This document shows positions 9,585 to 19,884 of a stretch of 32,000 nt of DNA, one piece after another (position 1 is the stretch's first letter; the number at the start of each line of letters is the position of its first letter). The stretch lies in contig NC_000958.1 of assembly GCF_000008565.1 (NCBI RefSeq), forward strand, positions 90,001 to 122,000, in the 5' to 3' direction. The notes below the pieces were generated by a model. It worked only from the letters and a program-made list of their open reading frames with translations, did not search any database and was not told the DNA's origin. This DNA comes from Deinococcus radiodurans R1 = ATCC 13939 = DSM 20539 (GTDB lineage Bacteria > Deinococcota > Deinococci > Deinococcales > Deinococcaceae). A program made the position numbers and the translations under genes.

Positions 9585-10214
9585 CTACAGCAGCCCCGCC
9601 CGCAGCGCCTTGACTGCCGCCTGGGTGCGGTCGGCGGCCTGCAACCTGTGCAGGATGTCCTGAATATGCAGTTTCACGGTGCTGACGCTGACGCCGAGCG
9701 CTTCGGCGATGTCCTTGTTGGGCAGCCCGTCGGCAATCAGGCGCAGGATGTCGAGTTCGCGGGGGGTCAGGGGCGAGTGGGCTTCAGGCATCCGCACGCC
9801 GCCGAGGACGTGGTGCGCCACCTGCGGATCGAGGTAGGCGCTGCCCGCCGCCGCCGCGCGAATCGCCAGCAGCAGCAGGTCCGGGCTGGCCGATTTGAGG
9901 CAGTAGGCGTCCGCGCCCGAGGCGAGCGAAGCGAAGACTTCCTCGCGCAGGTCGTGGGCGGTGAGCATCACGATGCGGACCCCCGGCCAGCGGCGCTTGA
10001 TTTCGCGCGCTGTGGCGATGCCGTCCATGCCCGGCAGGCCGATATCCACCACCGCCACGTCCACTGGCCGCCCAGTGAGGACTTCCAATGCCTCCTCCCC
10101 GCTGCGGGCCTCGGCCACCACGCGCAGGTCGGGTTCGAGGTTCAGCGTGGCGCGCAGCCCGTCGCGGGTAAAGGCGTGGTCCTCAACGAGCAGGATGCCC
10201 ACCGGGTCAGGCAT
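9585..10214 (-). CDS. Response regulator, NarL/FixJ (LuxR-type HTH) family
   Basis: Receiver domain (ILLVEDHAFTRDGL, VDVAVVDIGLPGMDG) plus LuxR HTH (TPRELDILRLIADGLPNKDIAEALGVSVSTVKLHIQDIL). The start overlaps the upstream kinase stop by 8 nt. Confidence 0.9.
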   Translation of the reverse strand: MPDPVGILLVEDHAFTRDGLRATLNLEPDLRVVAEARSGEEALEVLTGRPVDVAVVDIGLPGMDGIATAREIKRRWPGVRIVMLTAHDLREEVFASLASGADAYCLKSASPDLLLLAIRAAAAGSAYLDPQVAHHVLGGVRMPEAHSPLTPRELDILRLIADGLPNKDIAEALGVSVSTVKLHIQDILHRLQAADRTQAAVKALRAGLL

Positions 10215-11754
10215 GGGGCGCCTCGGGCAGGGTCAGCACGAACTGGCTCTGCGCCCGCGCCGTGCGGCGGTAACGCACCGTGCCGCCGTGCGCCTCGGCA
10301 ATCCGGCGGGTGAGGTACAGGCCCAGCCCGCTGCCGCTGCCCGCCCCCGCGCCCCGGAAGCGCTGAAAGAGCCGCGCCTGCTGCTCGGCGGGAATGCCGG
10401 GGCCGCTGTCTTGCACGATGAAGGTGACCTCGTCGCCGTCGCCGGTCAGAAAGAGCGTGACTTCCCCGCCCGGCGGGCTGAACTTGATGGCGTTGTCGAG
10501 CAGGTTCTGTACCGCGCGCCGCAGGTCGTGCTTGCGTCCCAGCACGGTCACGCCGCTGAGATTTGTTTCGACGGTGACGTTCCTGGCCTCGGCGCGGGGC
10601 CGCAGGTCGCCGGCCACGCTCAGGACCACGGCGCGCAGCGGCACCGGCTCGCGCTCCTCGTCCTCGCCGCTCTCGAACTTGGCGACGCTCAGGAGCTGGT
10701 CGGCGAGGTCGAGCAGCGTTTCGTTGGCCTGGAGCCCGTTTTCCAGCGTGGCGCGGTAGGCGGGCGGCAACTCGCCGTAAGCGCCTCTCAGGGCGGCTTT
10801 CATGTTCATGGCGTTCGCCAGCAGCGGCGTGCGCAGGTCATGCGAGAAAGCGTACACGAGGTCGCGCAGCAGTTCACCGCGCTCGGCGAGTTGCTGGCGG
10901 TTTTGCCGCAGGTCGTCGAGCAGCGCGGTGCGCTCCAGCAGCGGTTGCAGGGTGCGGACGGCGAGGCTGGTCACGCCCGGCGCGCTGTGCGGCGAGTTCA
11001 GGATGAGCAGCAAGTCGCCCTCGGTCGGGCGACGCAGGCGGGCGAGGTGGACGTTGCCGCCCTCGGTCGCCCACACGTCCCCGGCCCCCACCGGATGCGC
11101 CAGAAATTCCAGCGGAATGCGGGTGTTCAGGCGGCTGGGGCGCTCGGCGGCAGGCAGGTCGGGCGCGAGCACCAGCGCGTAGGGCTGCGTCAGCACCGCC
11201 TTGTCCACCGCGCCGATTTCCACGCTGCTCGCCCCGGTCAGGCGCTGCAAGGCCGCCGCCGCCCGCTCCACGAACTCGGCCTGCCCCAGTGGGCCACCCA
11301 GGTCCTCGGCGAGTTGCCGCCGGGCTTTTTCGCGGGCGAGTTGGTGCTCCTCTTCCTTGAGCGCCGCCGCCTGCTCGGAGGCTTCGCGGGCGCGGGTGGA
11401 GAGGTAGCCCACCAGCACCACCGCCAGAATGCTCACGGCGCGGTTGGCGAAGTGGTAGCCCCCCACGCCGTCGCGCGAGCCGTTCCAGAAGCCGGCGACC
11501 ACGTTCGCCAGCACCGCCAGCGCGGTGAGTTGCCAGACCGTCTTTTTCGACGTGCCGAGCGCCGCGAACGCGACCGACGCGCTGAGCACCGTGCCGAGCG
11601 CGAACGACGCGGGCGTCAGGAGGTCGAGCAGCACCACGACCACCAGCAGCGAGAGGGACACCCCCCACACCACCCCGTCGCTCAGGGGAAACTGCGGCGG
11701 CGGGAACAGCTCCCGCACGAATGCTCCTGTGCTTTCCGGCCAGCGCGTCCTCAT
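10207..11754 (-). CDS. Membrane sensor histidine kinase (N-terminal multi-TM module, GAF-like middle region, HisKA + HATPase)
   Basis: H-box FSHDLRTPL, N-box NLLDNAIKF, G-boxes DSGPGIP and GSGLGLYL. There are three to four N-terminal hydrophobic helices. I prefer ATG 11754 (MRTRWPE) over the ORF-track start at 11856. Confidence 0.85.
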   Translation of the reverse strand: MRTRWPESTGAFVRELFPPPQFPLSDGVVWGVSLSLLVVVVLLDLLTPASFALGTVLSASVAFAALGTSKKTVWQLTALAVLANVVAGFWNGSRDGVGGYHFANRAVSILAVVLVGYLSTRAREASEQAAALKEEEHQLAREKARRQLAEDLGGPLGQAEFVERAAAALQRLTGASSVEIGAVDKAVLTQPYALVLAPDLPAAERPSRLNTRIPLEFLAHPVGAGDVWATEGGNVHLARLRRPTEGDLLLILNSPHSAPGVTSLAVRTLQPLLERTALLDDLRQNRQQLAERGELLRDLVYAFSHDLRTPLLANAMNMKAALRGAYGELPPAYRATLENGLQANETLLDLADQLLSVAKFESGEDEEREPVPLRAVVLSVAGDLRPRAEARNVTVETNLSGVTVLGRKHDLRRAVQNLLDNAIKFSPPGGEVTLFLTGDGDEVTFIVQDSGPGIPAEQQARLFQRFRGAGAGSGSGLGLYLTRRIAEAHGGTVRYRRTARAQSQFVLTLPEAPHA

Positions 11755-11789
11755 GGGCCCCAGCGTAGCCCGCCTGTCCCCGGCGCACG

Positions 11790-11807
11790 ATTGGCCAGGT
11801 GGCCAAT
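11790..11807. promoter_or_regulatory. Perfect 18-bp palindrome in the kinase / kdpB divergent promoter region
   Basis: ATTGGCCA-GG-TGGCCAAT, followed by a partial third half-site (CTGGCCGAT, 11820-11828). It lies between the kinase start (11754) and the kdpB start (11886). Confidence 0.4.
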
Positions 11808-11885
11808 GCCCTGAGCCAGCTGGCCGATACCTCACTCCGCGCCGCAGGACGACCATAACGGCGCTATGAGTCTTTCTTCTTTCCG

Positions 11886-13922
<2,037 letters not shown>

Positions 13923-13932
13923 GGCGTTTATG

Positions 13933-14334
13933 TCAGTTCTCGTTACGAAGAGAAATTCCTGTCCAAATGGCTGCTCCACACATGACTATGAAAGGGAAAA
14001 TGAATTGTCTTACATCTAAACTCTTTGCCAAAGCCATTAACAGTAGGCCTACCAAAATTAGTAGAACCACTCCAGTCATGATAATAGCAACTTGTGCCTT
14101 CCGGGTTGGAGCCATTACATGAGCTACGAAAACCGGTGCTGCACCCGACGCTGCATTTGCAACAAGGAAAATCCACCAGCTTGGTGTGCTTACCCCGCCT
14201 GGGCCAGTAAGTTTGGCAAGAAAGGAAACAACTACATAAGCAACTAGAGAGCTTAAAAGTGCAATTGGAAGAAGTAAAACCCATCGTATTACGTCGGCAG
14301 GAGACCTCTCTTGCATGATGAGAAATCTTACCAT
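13933..14334 (-). CDS. Hypothetical four-helix membrane protein encoded on a low-GC island, antisense to kdp
   Basis: 133-aa ORF with four clear hydrophobic spans ([87 protein letters not shown]). A hand count over 180 nt gives about 41% GC. I recognise no family and see no obvious SD. Confidence 0.55.
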
Positions 14335-14368
14335 TTGTCACAATCTTGTGTTCTGCAAAGGAATCCTC

Positions 14369-14449
14369 ATGGACATCCTGCTTCCCCTGCTGCTGGTCGT
14401 CTTTTTCGCCCTCTGCGCCGCTTACCTCAGAGGCATGGACAACCTATGA
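14369..14449 (+). CDS. Candidate 26-aa hydrophobic micro-protein upstream of kdpF
   Basis: ATG 14369 is preceded by AAGGA at a 6-nt spacing. It encodes [26 protein letters not shown]. The stop overlaps the kdpF start as ATGA (14446-14449). GC content matches the native genome. Confidence 0.35.
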
Positions 14450-14526
14450 TTCTCGCCCTCGCTCTGATTTCGCTGGCCCTGTTCGTCTACCTGCTGTACT
14501 CGCTGCTGCGCCCGGAGGACTTTTAA
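14446..14526 (+). CDS. kdpF: K+-ATPase small subunit F
   Basis: [26 protein letters not shown]: 26 aa, single TM, with the typical KdpF C-terminal xPExF ending. It ends 2 nt before the kdpA ATG. Confidence 0.8.
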
Positions 14527-14528
14527 CC

Positions 14529-16235
<1,707 letters not shown>

Positions 16236-16365: not shown

Positions 16366-17019
16366 ATGACCACCCCTAATGCCAACCTCCAGAACTCCGC
16401 CCCCCTCCCTGCCGAGCGCCCCACGCCGCTGCCCCGGCTGCTGCTCAGTGCACTGCTGGCCGCCGTGCTGTTCATGCTGGTGTGCGGCCTGGCCTATCCG
16501 CTGCTGACCACCGTGGTCGCGGGCGCCGCTTTCCCCAATCAGGCGGGCGGCAGCCTGGTGACCCGGAACGGCCAGGTGGTCGGCTCGGCGGTGCTGGGCC
16601 AGAACTTCACTGCGCCGCGCTACCTGCATGGCCGCCCCTCCATGACGAGCAAGACCGACGGCAGCGGCCCCGAGCCCTACAACGCCGAGAACTCCGGCGC
16701 CAGCAACTGGGGCCCCACCAACGCCAAGTTGCAGGGCGCGGTGCAAGGGCGCATCGCCGCCTTCCGCCAGGAAAACGGCCTGGGCGCGGACGTGCCGGTG
16801 CCGATAGACGCCGTGACCGCCTCGGCCAGCGGCCTGGACCCCGACGTGACGCTGGCGACGGCACTTTTGCAGGTGAACCGGATTGCTCAGGCGCGGGGCA
16901 TGCAGCCCGCCGGGGTGGAAAAGGTCATCCGAGCCCACCTGAAAGGCCGTGATCTGGGACTGCTGGGCGAGCCGCGCGTGAATGTGCTGGCGGTGAATTT
17001 GAGCCTGGACGGGCAGTAA
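16366..17019 (+). CDS. kdpC: K+-transporting ATPase subunit C
   Basis: 217 aa with AAGGAG SD. Contains [32 protein letters not shown] and [11 protein letters not shown], all collinear with KdpC. Confidence 0.9.
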
Positions 17020-17024
17020 ACACG

Positions 17025-18122
17025 ATGTCCGAACCCATCCGCCTGACCCTCCCCCGCGACTCGCAGTCGCCACAGCCTGAGCGCGGCACCCACCGCATTT
17101 TCATCGGCATGGCGGCGGGCGTGGGCAAGACCTACCGCGCCCTGAACGAGCTGCGTGAGCGGCTGGAACGCGGCGAGGACGCGCTGGTCGGCGTGCTGGA
17201 AACCCACGGGCGGCGCGAAACCCTGCAGGCCGCCGAGGGCCTGCCCGTTTTTCCCCGGCGCGAGATCGTGCATGGCAACGTGACCCTGAGCGAACTCGAC
17301 GTGGAGGGCCTGATTGCCCGCAACCCCTTCATCGTCCTGATTGACGAACTGGCCCACACCAACGCGCCCGGCAGCCCGCACGAGAAGCGCTGGCAGGATG
17401 TGGAAGCGCTGCGCGACGCCGGCATTCACGTCCTGTCCACCATGAACGTGCAGCACCTCGAATCGCTGAACGACACGGTGGCGCGCCTGACCGGGGTGCG
17501 GGTACGCGAGCGGGTGCCGGATTTCGTGCTGCATGACGCCGACGAACTGGTTCTGATTGACCTGCCGCCCGAGGACCTGCGTGAGCGGTTGCGGGCCGGG
17601 AAAATCTACGCGCCCGAGAAAGTGGAGCAGGCGCTGGGCAACTTTTTCACTCTGCCCAACCTGACCGCGCTGCGCGAAATTGCGCTGCGGCATGTAGCGC
17701 AGGCGGTGGAGCTGGAGGTGCCCGAGGGCCAGCCCGCCGCGCACGAGGTGGTCGTGGTGGCGATGGCGGCGGAGGGCACGGCGGCCCGCCTGATTCGCCG
17801 GGGTGGGCAACTCGCCGAGCGCCTGCGCGGTGAGCTGCACGTGGTCACGGTGCGCCCGGCCCGCCTGACGCCCGAGGCCTCGCGGATGCTCGACACCTGC
17901 CGCGAAATCACCGAGGCCCTCGGCGGAGGATTCCGGGTGCTGGACAACGTCGGGACGGTGGGCGCCACACTGGTCGCCTACGCCCGCGCCGTTCACGCCA
18001 CCCAGATCGTGATGGGGGAGACCAGCCGCAGCCGCTGGGCCGAGCTGTTGCGCGGCGACATCATCAAGTACGTGCTGCGCGGGACGCAGGGCATGGACGT
18101 TCATGTCATCAGCCGGGATTAG
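17025..18122 (+). CDS. kdpD: Truncated KdpD: N-terminal sensor (KdpD-N) + Usp domain only, no membrane or kinase part
   Basis: 365 aa with RIFIGMAAGVGKTYRALNE (Walker-A-like KdpD-N), STMNVQHLESLND, then a Usp-like VVVVAMAAEGTAARLIRRGGQLAERL...QIVMGE. The ORF ends at 365 aa. Confidence 0.9.
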   Translation: MSEPIRLTLPRDSQSPQPERGTHRIFIGMAAGVGKTYRALNELRERLERGEDALVGVLETHGRRETLQAAEGLPVFPRREIVHGNVTLSELDVEGLIARNPFIVLIDELAHTNAPGSPHEKRWQDVEALRDAGIHVLSTMNVQHLESLNDTVARLTGVRVRERVPDFVLHDADELVLIDLPPEDLRERLRAGKIYAPEKVEQALGNFFTLPNLTALREIALRHVAQAVELEVPEGQPAAHEVVVVAMAAEGTAARLIRRGGQLAERLRGELHVVTVRPARLTPEASRMLDTCREITEALGGGFRVLDNVGTVGATLVAYARAVHATQIVMGETSRSRWAELLRGDIIKYVLRGTQGMDVHVISRD

Positions 18123-18333: not shown

Positions 18334-19884
18334 ATGTTGTCCCGCCGTGTTCTGCTGACCATGGGCCTGACTCTGGCCTCTGCCTTCCCGACTGGGCTCG
18401 CTCAGAGGCCCCAGCCACAGACGGCTCAGGCGCAGGCGGACCTCGAAGCGATAAGCACCGCCTACACGATGTACCTCAGCGCCACGTTCATCCGGGACAG
18501 CTGCGTGAAACGCGACCCGGCCAGCGCCGTCAGGGTCAACCAAAGCTACGCGGCGTGGCTTGCGGCCCAAAACCTCGGCACGTTCGAGGCGCAGCTCGGT
18601 AAAAAGTTCGGGACTGATCAGGTCAAAGCGCTGCGCCAGGAGATAAGCGGCCAGCTGGCGGTCTTGGATACCGCGCTGCAAAAGCTGGGGCCGGCCAGTC
18701 AGGCCTGCCCGGCCTTGGCAACCCAGTTTTCATCCGATACCTTCGATGTGCGAAAGAAGGTGCCCAACCTCGCGGCGCTGCTCACTGTAGGTAGAGGGCC
18801 AAGCGGAACAACGGCGGCCAGTGGAAGTGGTAGCAGCGCCGGGGCCAGCGTCACCGTTTACAGCGTGGCGCAACTCTCTTCGCTCATGGCCCAAACGGTC
18901 GCGCCGCTGCGGAGCGCCGGAACCCGTGCTCAGGAGGCTGCCGGCCTGAAAAAATTGCAAACGCTGGGCAAGGTGATCGTGGTGAGCGGCACGACCAAGC
19001 GCAGGCGCTCCATCACGCAGGCCGACGACCGCCGCGAAGTCAGGTACGACGTGTATTGCTACGACATGCACAACGACGCCGCCGATCCGCCCCAGGGGCA
19101 AGTCACGGTGGCTGGGCGGATTCGTGAGTTCGACGCCAGCCTGGGTGTCGTGCTGGAAGACTGCGTGGTTTTGAGCGCCGGCCAGAGCGCCCAGTTCAAA
19201 AAATCTACCCTGGCCGTCGTGGACGCGGCGTGGCAGTTCAAGTCCCAGCCCTACGAGAAGTTTCTGGTGCCTGCCGGCCAGGGCCTGAAAGACAGCGAGA
19301 TTCTGGGCGCGTACATGGAGCAATCCAGCGCCGTTGGCGTCGGGGGGATGACGATCACCACCTATCCTGTCTCGCTGTTTCTGAAAGACGGCACCGTGTT
19401 CAATGATCCTTATTGGGCGCCCACGTCGTTCAACTTCAAGCTCTCGCGGCAGCTTGAGCCGCAGAAATGGGGCAAGTGGACCCGCCAGGGCAACAATTTC
19501 ACGATCAAATGGAGCGACGGCAGAACTGACACCTTCATCGTCAAGGGCGCGCCCAAGGCCCTACCCGCCGGCACGCGGTTGTCGGGGACATTCGAGACCA
19601 TCTCCGGCGGCGGCACCACCTCGCTAGGCGGCGACACCATTGTGGTGAGCAGCGGCACGTATACCTTCCGGCCAGACGGCACGTTCACGGGCGGCAGCTT
19701 CGGCGGCGGTGGTGACTCGTCAGTCACTGTCGGCAGCAGCAGGGCAAGCGGCGGCACCTACAGTGTCAGTGGCTACGGCATCACCCTCAGGGGCTCGGCC
19801 AGTCAGGAACGCCGGCTGTTCTTTGCCCGCTACAACGACGACATGCTGTACATTGGCAGCTCGACTTACACCCGCGACCGCTGA
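18334..19884 (+). CDS. Secreted hypothetical protein
   Basis: 516 aa. Signal peptide MLSRRVLLTMGLTLASAFPTGLAQ, a helical N-domain, a Gly/Ser linker (GPSGTTAASGSGSSAGAS), and a beta-rich C-terminal region with repeated G-T-Y/F motifs (SGTYTFRPDGTFTGG, GGTYSVSGYGITL). I recognise no family. Confidence 0.7.
   Translation: MLSRRVLLTMGLTLASAFPTGLAQRPQPQTAQAQADLEAISTAYTMYLSATFIRDSCVKRDPASAVRVNQSYAAWLAAQNLGTFEAQLGKKFGTDQVKALRQEISGQLAVLDTALQKLGPASQACPALATQFSSDTFDVRKKVPNLAALLTVGRGPSGTTAASGSGSSAGASVTVYSVAQLSSLMAQTVAPLRSAGTRAQEAAGLKKLQTLGKVIVVSGTTKRRRSITQADDRREVRYDVYCYDMHNDAADPPQGQVTVAGRIREFDASLGVVLEDCVVLSAGQSAQFKKSTLAVVDAAWQFKSQPYEKFLVPAGQGLKDSEILGAYMEQSSAVGVGGMTITTYPVSLFLKDGTVFNDPYWAPTSFNFKLSRQLEPQKWGKWTRQGNNFTIKWSDGRTDTFIVKGAPKALPAGTRLSGTFETISGGGTTSLGGDTIVVSSGTYTFRPDGTFTGGSFGGGGDSSVTVGSSRASGGTYSVSGYGITLRGSASQERRLFFARYNDDMLYIGSSTYTRDR

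Follow-up and report, generated by a model that had tools for sequence, protein, structure and literature searches.

A foreign low-GC segment with an antisense four-helix membrane protein gene in the kdp cluster of Deinococcus radiodurans megaplasmid MP1

The kdp locus and the insert within it

We analysed a stretch of 32,000 nucleotides of Deinococcus radiodurans R1 (positions 90,001 to 122,000 of NC_000958.1), here called the window, which contains the kdp genes. The gene order was taken from one RefSeq annotation (NZ_CP150842.1). Its plus strand carries kdpB, kdpA, kdpC and a gene for a universal-stress/KdpD-N protein, while a hypothetical protein (WP_342482061.1) is encoded on the minus strand between kdpB and kdpA. 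A response regulator and a histidine kinase are also annotated on the minus strand. The features of the locus are the following:

11886-13922, plus strand: kdpB, convergent with the inserted gene, the two stop codons lying 10 nt apart
13927-14355, no strand assigned: foreign AT-rich insert of 429 bp, GC 0.44, edges set by the alignment with D. wulumuqiensis
13933-14334, minus strand: intact gene for a membrane protein with four transmembrane helices (4-TM), 133 aa from ATG 14334, taken from the list of open reading frames (ORFs)
14325-14333, minus strand: extended -10-like motif TGGTAAGAT, 8 nt upstream of ATG 14316, candidate promoter
14356-14368, plus strand: native spacer with the Shine-Dalgarno-like CAAAGGA that serves ORF X; right flank of the insert, common to D. 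wulumuqiensis and a Deinococcus MAG
14369-14449, plus strand: ORF X, hydrophobic peptide of 26 aa, ATGA overlap onto kdpF, conserved in six Deinococcus
14446-14526, plus strand: kdpF (TIGR02115 E = 5e-10, PF09604 E = 3.8e-9, both above cut-offs)
14529-16235, plus strand: kdpA (ORF list, annotation, family models)
16366-17019, plus strand: kdpC (ORF list, annotation, family models)
17025-18122, plus strand: gene for the N-terminal half of KdpD (ORF list, annotation, family models)

Published work treated kdpBACD-N as one operon and did not mention the antisense gene (PMC5716572). The kdpB promoter, which is induced by K+ limitation, was characterised there by Dani et al. (PMC5716572). The corrected R1 map reads kdpB, foreign antisense gene, ORF X, kdpF, kdpA, kdpC, kdpD-N and is relevant to studies of kdp regulation. 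The initial annotation had placed the insertion precisely between kdpB and kdpF. Its position inside the kdp cluster holds, but direct adjacency to kdpF does not, since the immediate neighbour is ORF X, which overlaps kdpF.

The regulators of this locus are split. The response regulator that accompanies the divergent histidine kinase is of the NarL/LuxR type (GerE) and not an OmpR-type KdpE (9585-11856, minus strand), and a separate non-kinase sensor, the N-terminal half of KdpD, is encoded downstream of kdpC (17025-18122, plus strand). This arrangement was already described by Dani et al. in 2017 (PMC5716572). Further downstream of the cluster, an ORF of 516 aa (18334-19884, plus strand) is annotated as hypothetical and has no Pfam or NCBIfam match. 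Two records, CP094464.1 (BRD125) and NZ_CP050122.1, are 1 bp shorter over window positions 13000-15500 and list no kdpB CDS; kdpB may be frameshifted or a pseudogene there, or the records may contain a sequencing indel. The 1-bp difference lies outside 13900-14400.

An island of about 41% GC had been noted directly after the kdpB stop, and the hand count behind it, 73/180 over 13921-14100 (0.406), was exact. Over 13923-14355 the GC content is 0.443, whereas the 612 other 433-bp segments of the window have a mean of 0.668 (sd 0.039, minimum 0.561), which corresponds to z = -5.8. This is the sole GC trough of such depth in the 32 kb and nowhere else does the GC content fall below 56%. The AT-rich codon usage of the antisense ORF was likewise borne out. 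Its GC3 is 0.35, compared with 0.86-0.93 in the six neighbouring genes, and its codon adaptation index (CAI), calculated with the codon table of these six genes, is 0.11, compared with 0.63-0.75 for the host genes.

To define the edges we used D. wulumuqiensis, whose kdp locus, at 86% nucleotide identity, is the closest among the plasmid-borne ones. TGAGGCG right after the kdpB stop and CAAAGGA right before ORF X occur in both species, and the interior is unrelated. Since the two flanks are shared and nothing is shared between them, the foreign segment corresponds to 13927-14355. The ORF fills almost the whole insert, leaving 6 nt past its stop codon and 21 nt before its first ATG.

The end of kdpB is itself AT-rich. 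Its last 13 codons (13884-13922) have a GC content of 0.36, the lowest of the 666 windows in the gene, and share 54% identity with D. antarcticus, which is nearly the lowest value of the 666 windows. The protein ends in IGGLMS, where relatives have ITP(F/L)(M/L)x. We rejected a foreign tract that would start at about 13884, by homology-facilitated capture with a foreign kdpB 3' end, because the insert-free terminus of D. wulumuqiensis is equally AT-rich (~36% GC). The two termini differ notably only in the last five codons (IGGLMS and ITPFMQ). The AT-rich terminus is thus shared with D. wulumuqiensis, so it predates the insert and is not part of it.

Other Deinococcus kdp loci were collected by a kdpA-based scan of GTDB genomes and by BLAST of plasmids, which gave five. 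They all have the same unusual order kdpB-X-kdpF-kdpA-kdpC and lack the insert at the orthologous junction (L003, L004, L095, L096 and L097). The distance from the kdpB stop to ORF X is 8-9 bp in D. antarcticus, D. psychrotolerans and D. ficus, ~80 bp in the Deinococcus MAG, ~190 bp of unrelated GC-rich sequence in D. wulumuqiensis and 446 bp in D. radiodurans. As far as the six compared sequences reach, the insert is specific to D. radiodurans, and the junction between kdpB and ORF X appears to be a recurrent insertion spot in the genus. Two inverted arms of 21 nt (CCTCCCCCCTTGCGGGGGAGG and CCTCTCCCACAAGGGGCGAGG) give the ~190-bp spacer of D. wulumuqiensis (R12 plasmid NZ_CP049361.1, L095 1345-1530) the look of a small palindromic repeat element, which does not occur in the D. 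radiodurans window. On the D. ficus plasmid pDFI1 (L096 ~2511-2630) an extra spacer of ~120 bp separates ORF X from kdpF, which overlap in the other five Deinococcus.

Within the species the insert is 100% identical and in the same position in 14 MP1 records under different accessions. The 501 bp around the island match these 14 records of the D. radiodurans megaplasmid MP1 at 100% identity, and there was no other match among 72,556 plasmids.

The initial annotation had found no integrase, transposase, tRNA or clear flanking repeat, and scans of the window, the neighbours and the flanks confirmed this. The 32-kb window contains no tRNA, neither the six neighbouring ORFs scanned nor the flank annotation contain an integrase or transposase, and the search for flanking repeats, target-site duplications and terminal inverted repeats gave trivial short matches only. 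A resemblance of 13927-13945 to the start of ORF X (~65% over 23 nt by hand alignment) was unconvincing. We also dismissed two features of the plus strand. A structured RNA or riboswitch is not indicated, since the strand has no Rfam match at E up to 10 and no excess folding (z = +0.67). A plus-strand ORF of 67 aa (13919-14122), which overlaps the kdpB stop through ATGA, matches no family and is the antisense of the real gene.

A recent horizontal acquisition from a lower-GC donor, as proposed at the outset, is well supported by the absence of the insert in five Deinococcus, by its unameliorated composition and by the mobile-element contexts of its homologs. No close relative that could point to the donor was found in 5.8 billion proteins, in metagenome and viral contig scans or in sequenced phages and plasmids (tblastn); the tblastn search against 50,697 sequenced phages gave no homolog of the ORF. 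The closest homolog, P0002 (40% identity), lies on a contig of 40% GC and its gene has a GC3 of 0.34, close to the 0.35 of the island. The insert would then be a single-gene fragment from a donor of ~40-45% GC, captured at a variable intergenic spot between kdpB and ORF X. Illegitimate recombination may account for the capture; natural transformation could have preceded it, for instance, or a larger element could have decayed. It represents a clean case of unameliorated single-gene capture without mobility machinery, in a host that is naturally competent and highly proficient in DNA repair.

The antisense gene and its protein family

The predicted 133-aa ORF on the opposite strand (13933-14334) is present. 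However, the likelier product has 127 aa and starts at ATG 14316, which is the start chosen by PGAP (WP_342482061.1). Only one of the 14 assemblies lists the ORF as a gene, according to the PLSDB gene tables, which are incomplete.

A word-indexed search of 5.8 billion proteins matched only a fragment of the ORF itself. The exhaustive HMMER (phmmer) scan of 1.84 billion cluster representatives found 33 remote homologs with E-values from 4.4e-8 to 1e-3. Most have 123-160 aa, and their alignments cover the greater part of the query. When 29 sequences are aligned, helix 1 opens with (L/I)RW-x3-LP, and helix 2 contains a conserved glycine and is followed by (I/V)AP-x-(H/R)-K. The D. radiodurans counterparts are IRWVLLLP (16-23), G64 and MAPTRK (74-79). 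Three residues, W18, P23 and P76, are invariant in the 29 sequences and all of them are kept in the D. radiodurans protein. A leave-one-out profile built from the other 28 sequences gives this protein 105.7 bits, while the shuffle controls reached at most 9.7 bits (2000 composition-preserving shuffles) and 24.7 bits (2000 shuffles preserving the helix/loop pattern).

Because of these homologs, the kept motifs and the profile score, the ORF is not a true orphan. It is a genuine and intact member of a family of ~135-aa 4-TM proteins that has no database name (P0002-P0037). The earlier description of an orphan without a recognisable family is therefore correct for the curated libraries, as Pfam, NCBIfam, PADLOC and PHROG contain no fitting family, but it overlooked this uncharacterised family of remote homologs. 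The family is rare, with 90%-identity clusters of only 1-4 sequences each. A few members carry N-terminal extras, a zinc ribbon in P0005 and long forms in P0023, P0026 and P0030.

The best match in the curated libraries, to Pfam DUF7338, is weak and local and is due to the N-terminal LRW...LP helix (residues 14-56, E = 0.017). The likeness ends there, since the match, at 15.2 bits, falls short of the gathering cut-off of 27, it appears in only 3 of 29 members and the model has 180 positions.

The four hydrophobic helices of the initial annotation were found both by hydropathy and by AlphaFold. Hydropathy peaks lie at residues 18-40, 53-75, 81-103 and 111-129. AlphaFold2, run on the family alignment, predicts a four-helix bundle (mean pLDDT 90.6, pTM 0.82) with helices at 12-42, 52-74, 79-103 and 109-132. 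The predicted topology is N-in/C-in, which would place the conserved R78-K79 loop (A-P-x-(R/H)-K) in the cytoplasm, and the charge distribution fits this. A Foldseek search against PDB and BFVD returned nothing better than E = 0.27 and TM 0.40, and a PDB profile search was empty. The family consists of rare, uncharacterised, mobile-element-linked 4-TM proteins with a confident predicted fold that lacks structural relatives.

The genomic context could be read for 13 distinct homolog loci, in hosts ranging from 30% to 63% GC. Most of the loci examined adjoin integrases, excisionases, phage repressors or defence-type genes. The Winogradskyella locus (L083) has a tyrosine integrase and an HTH_17 excisionase-like gene, and the marine contigs (L084-L087) have an integrase, or a DNA methylase with a GHKL ATPase. 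The neighbours are P4 cII, Peptidase_M78, Beta_protein and an AAA_13 ATPase in Luteibacter (L092 and L094), and HEPN_Swt1/DUF499 in L093; the support from L093 and L094 consists of defence-type genes only. AlpA, a divergent HTH_3 repressor and HTH_17 surround the gene in L098, while RecT, an AntA/ANT antirepressor and an S24 cI-type repressor are found in L099, and an integrase with an AAA_25 replicase-like gene in L100-L101. Two short contigs (L090 and L091) have no mobile-element marker.

None of the 13 loci lies near kdp genes. An all-against-all BLAST of the neighbours across 10 loci found no conserved partner gene, and we therefore regard the gene as a stand-alone single-gene module. As judged from these neighbourhoods, the context pattern of the family is that of "moron" genes of prophages and integrative elements. 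The D. radiodurans copy itself is isolated within the window and does not lie in a mobile element or defence island.

Expression and possible roles of the inserted gene

Upstream of the start of the antisense gene, a generic promoter scan for canonical sigma-70 promoters found nothing, and the gene has no Shine-Dalgarno sequence. The extended -10-like motif TGGTAAGAT is one of only six TGNTANNNT motifs on both strands of the 32 kb. We estimate the chance probability of such a motif this near a start codon at ~0.06, so the evidence it provides is weak. TANNNT occurs in the insert at 7.5 times its background density. Many mRNAs of Deinococcus are leaderless, and in a related Deinococcus this is the dominant mRNA type (PMC4007540). 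A leaderless or near-leaderless mRNA that starts from the candidate promoter TGGTAAGAT and encodes the 127-aa product is thus plausible. Published expression data for the antisense ORF were not found in the full-text literature searched by neighbouring locus tags or in one supplement.

No terminator-like site is predicted between kdpB and ORF X on either strand, and therefore read-through from kdpB should cross the insert antisense to the gene. The initial annotation had raised transcriptional interference with kdpFAC as a possibility, on which published RNA-seq bears only indirectly (PMC10855626). There the log2 fold change was -1.11 for kdpB and -1.32 for kdpA in one comparison, and 2.58 and 2.23, respectively, in a second. 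That the two genes change together argues against a strong uncoupling by the insert.

We favour the reading that the insert is a captured foreign single gene for a mobile-element accessory 4-TM protein, which would have an exclusion- or defence-type role rather than one in K+ transport, and give it a probability of roughly 0.6. The gene's own AT-rich extended -10 element would probably drive a leaderless mRNA from ATG 14316, and its transcription would converge on kdpB. The protein may act as a membrane-level accessory of mobile elements, for example in superinfection exclusion or in a defence of the abortive-infection type. This role is our best guess, made through guilt by association from the 13 distinct loci. 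A membrane immunity or exclusion protein was also among the earlier suggestions. The homolog contexts favour it among the functional guesses, although only by association, and none of the 29 members matches any PADLOC-DB model at E up to 0.1.

Other functional suggestions fared worse. The window protein has no PHROG or Pfam holin match, which speaks against a holin; matches to holin families were isolated, weak and limited to single family members (E 0.0018 or worse), and an endolysin domain was recorded beside none of the homologs whose loci were examined. The small transporter gets no support from family or structure searches.

Lambda RexB and P22 SieB are membrane proteins of the superinfection-exclusion or "moron" type, encoded by prophages near a repressor or integrase, and RexB has four helices. 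The window protein and its family resemble them in being small (~130-145 aa) and polytopic with four helices, and homologs lie beside an S24 repressor with ANT (L099), an HTH_3 repressor (L098) or integrases (L083, L085 and L100). However, searches by sequence and by fold revealed no resemblance to any known exclusion, defence or holin family. A comparison made through Pfam-A only (E threshold 10 for the window protein, 0.1 for the 29 members) found no family of the RexB type, and the family has no conserved RexA-like partner across the 10 loci. Moreover, unlike the prophage exclusion genes, the D. radiodurans copy does not lie in a prophage but alone inside a housekeeping operon. We also compared the insert with integron cassettes and other promoter-poor insertions of one gene, which it resembles in being little more than a single ORF. 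It differs from a cassette in that the 6 nt from stop to edge leave no room for attC, the ends have no inverted repeats and there is no integron integrase nearby. The 4-TM family could reasonably enter screens for exclusion or defence functions encoded by prophages.

The insert may instead be inert passenger DNA, captured recently, whose ORF is still intact for want of time to decay and which has no functional expression or role. This is a real possibility, although we would not bet on it. The wholly unameliorated composition and the lack of both a Shine-Dalgarno sequence and a canonical sigma-70 promoter fit an inert passenger, as does its listing as a gene in a single assembly. A CAI of 0.11 also predicts poor translation in the host, and the D. 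radiodurans sequences are near-clonal and so provide no within-species evidence of purifying selection. On the other hand, all the family-invariant residues and the four helices are intact, the extended -10-like element is well placed for a leaderless mRNA, and the TANNNT density makes some transcription likely.

In a bolder form of the preferred reading, which we consider quite doubtful, the family would be an unrecognised class of single-gene, four-helix membrane effectors for exclusion or abortive infection, carried on prophages, satellites and islands, and the expression of the D. radiodurans copy would be inversely coupled to K+. Some members of such a class would be fused to N-terminal sensor-like domains, for example the zinc ribbon of P0005 and the long forms P0023, P0026 and P0030. 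Transcription of kdpB induced by K+ limitation would collide with the gene, so that its expression would be inverse to the potassium status.

Co-option by Kdp is improbable in our view. The inserted gene would then encode an extra membrane subunit or regulator, or its antisense transcription or AT-rich spacer would modulate the read-through from kdpB into X-kdpF-kdpA-kdpC. The precise position inside the operon, convergent with kdpB and with no predicted terminator before ORF X, could point in this direction, and the operon normally includes small membrane peptides (KdpF, ORF X). Like these two, the inserted gene encodes a hydrophobic membrane protein within the kdp operon. However, they have one helix and ~26 aa whereas its product has four helices and 127-133 aa, and the gene lies on the opposite strand, has a foreign composition and is absent from all other kdp operons examined. 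The window protein matches none of the Kdp models (KdpF/A/B/C), including TIGR02115 and PF09604 for KdpF. The five other Deinococcus kdp operons function without the insert, kdpB and kdpA still co-vary in the published RNA-seq (PMC10855626), and the plus-strand RNA has neither excess structure nor an Rfam match. The interaction with the Kdp complex suggested in the initial annotation thus finds no support, as 0/13 homolog loci are kdp-linked and the gene is missing from the other Deinococcus kdp operons. We consider a Kdp-related function of the inserted gene unlikely.

Finally, an assembly or contamination artefact, that is, a low-GC segment foreign to the D. radiodurans megaplasmid, would explain the abrupt compositional break and the lack of close relatives in any database, but it is refuted by the 14 identical assemblies with the insert in the same position and by the junctions, both of which run continuously into native sequence homologous to D. 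wulumuqiensis.

A small open reading frame beside kdpF

ORF X is unannotated and lies directly upstream of kdpF, which it overlaps through ATGA or GTGA. It is also present at L003 5845-5925, L095 ~1534-1614, L096 ~2430-2510 and L097 ~2457-2537. It matches no Pfam or NCBIfam model. A second small hydrophobic ORF next to kdpF was found in 27 of ~80 kdpA loci, from Proteobacteria, Paenibacillus, Acidobacteria and others; in Mesorhizobium, for example, it encodes MDIAVIGVGILFFALCFAYIKSCDAL. ORF X may be an overlooked extra small subunit of Kdp. A widespread second gene for a small peptide near kdpF may interest Kdp researchers more than the island.
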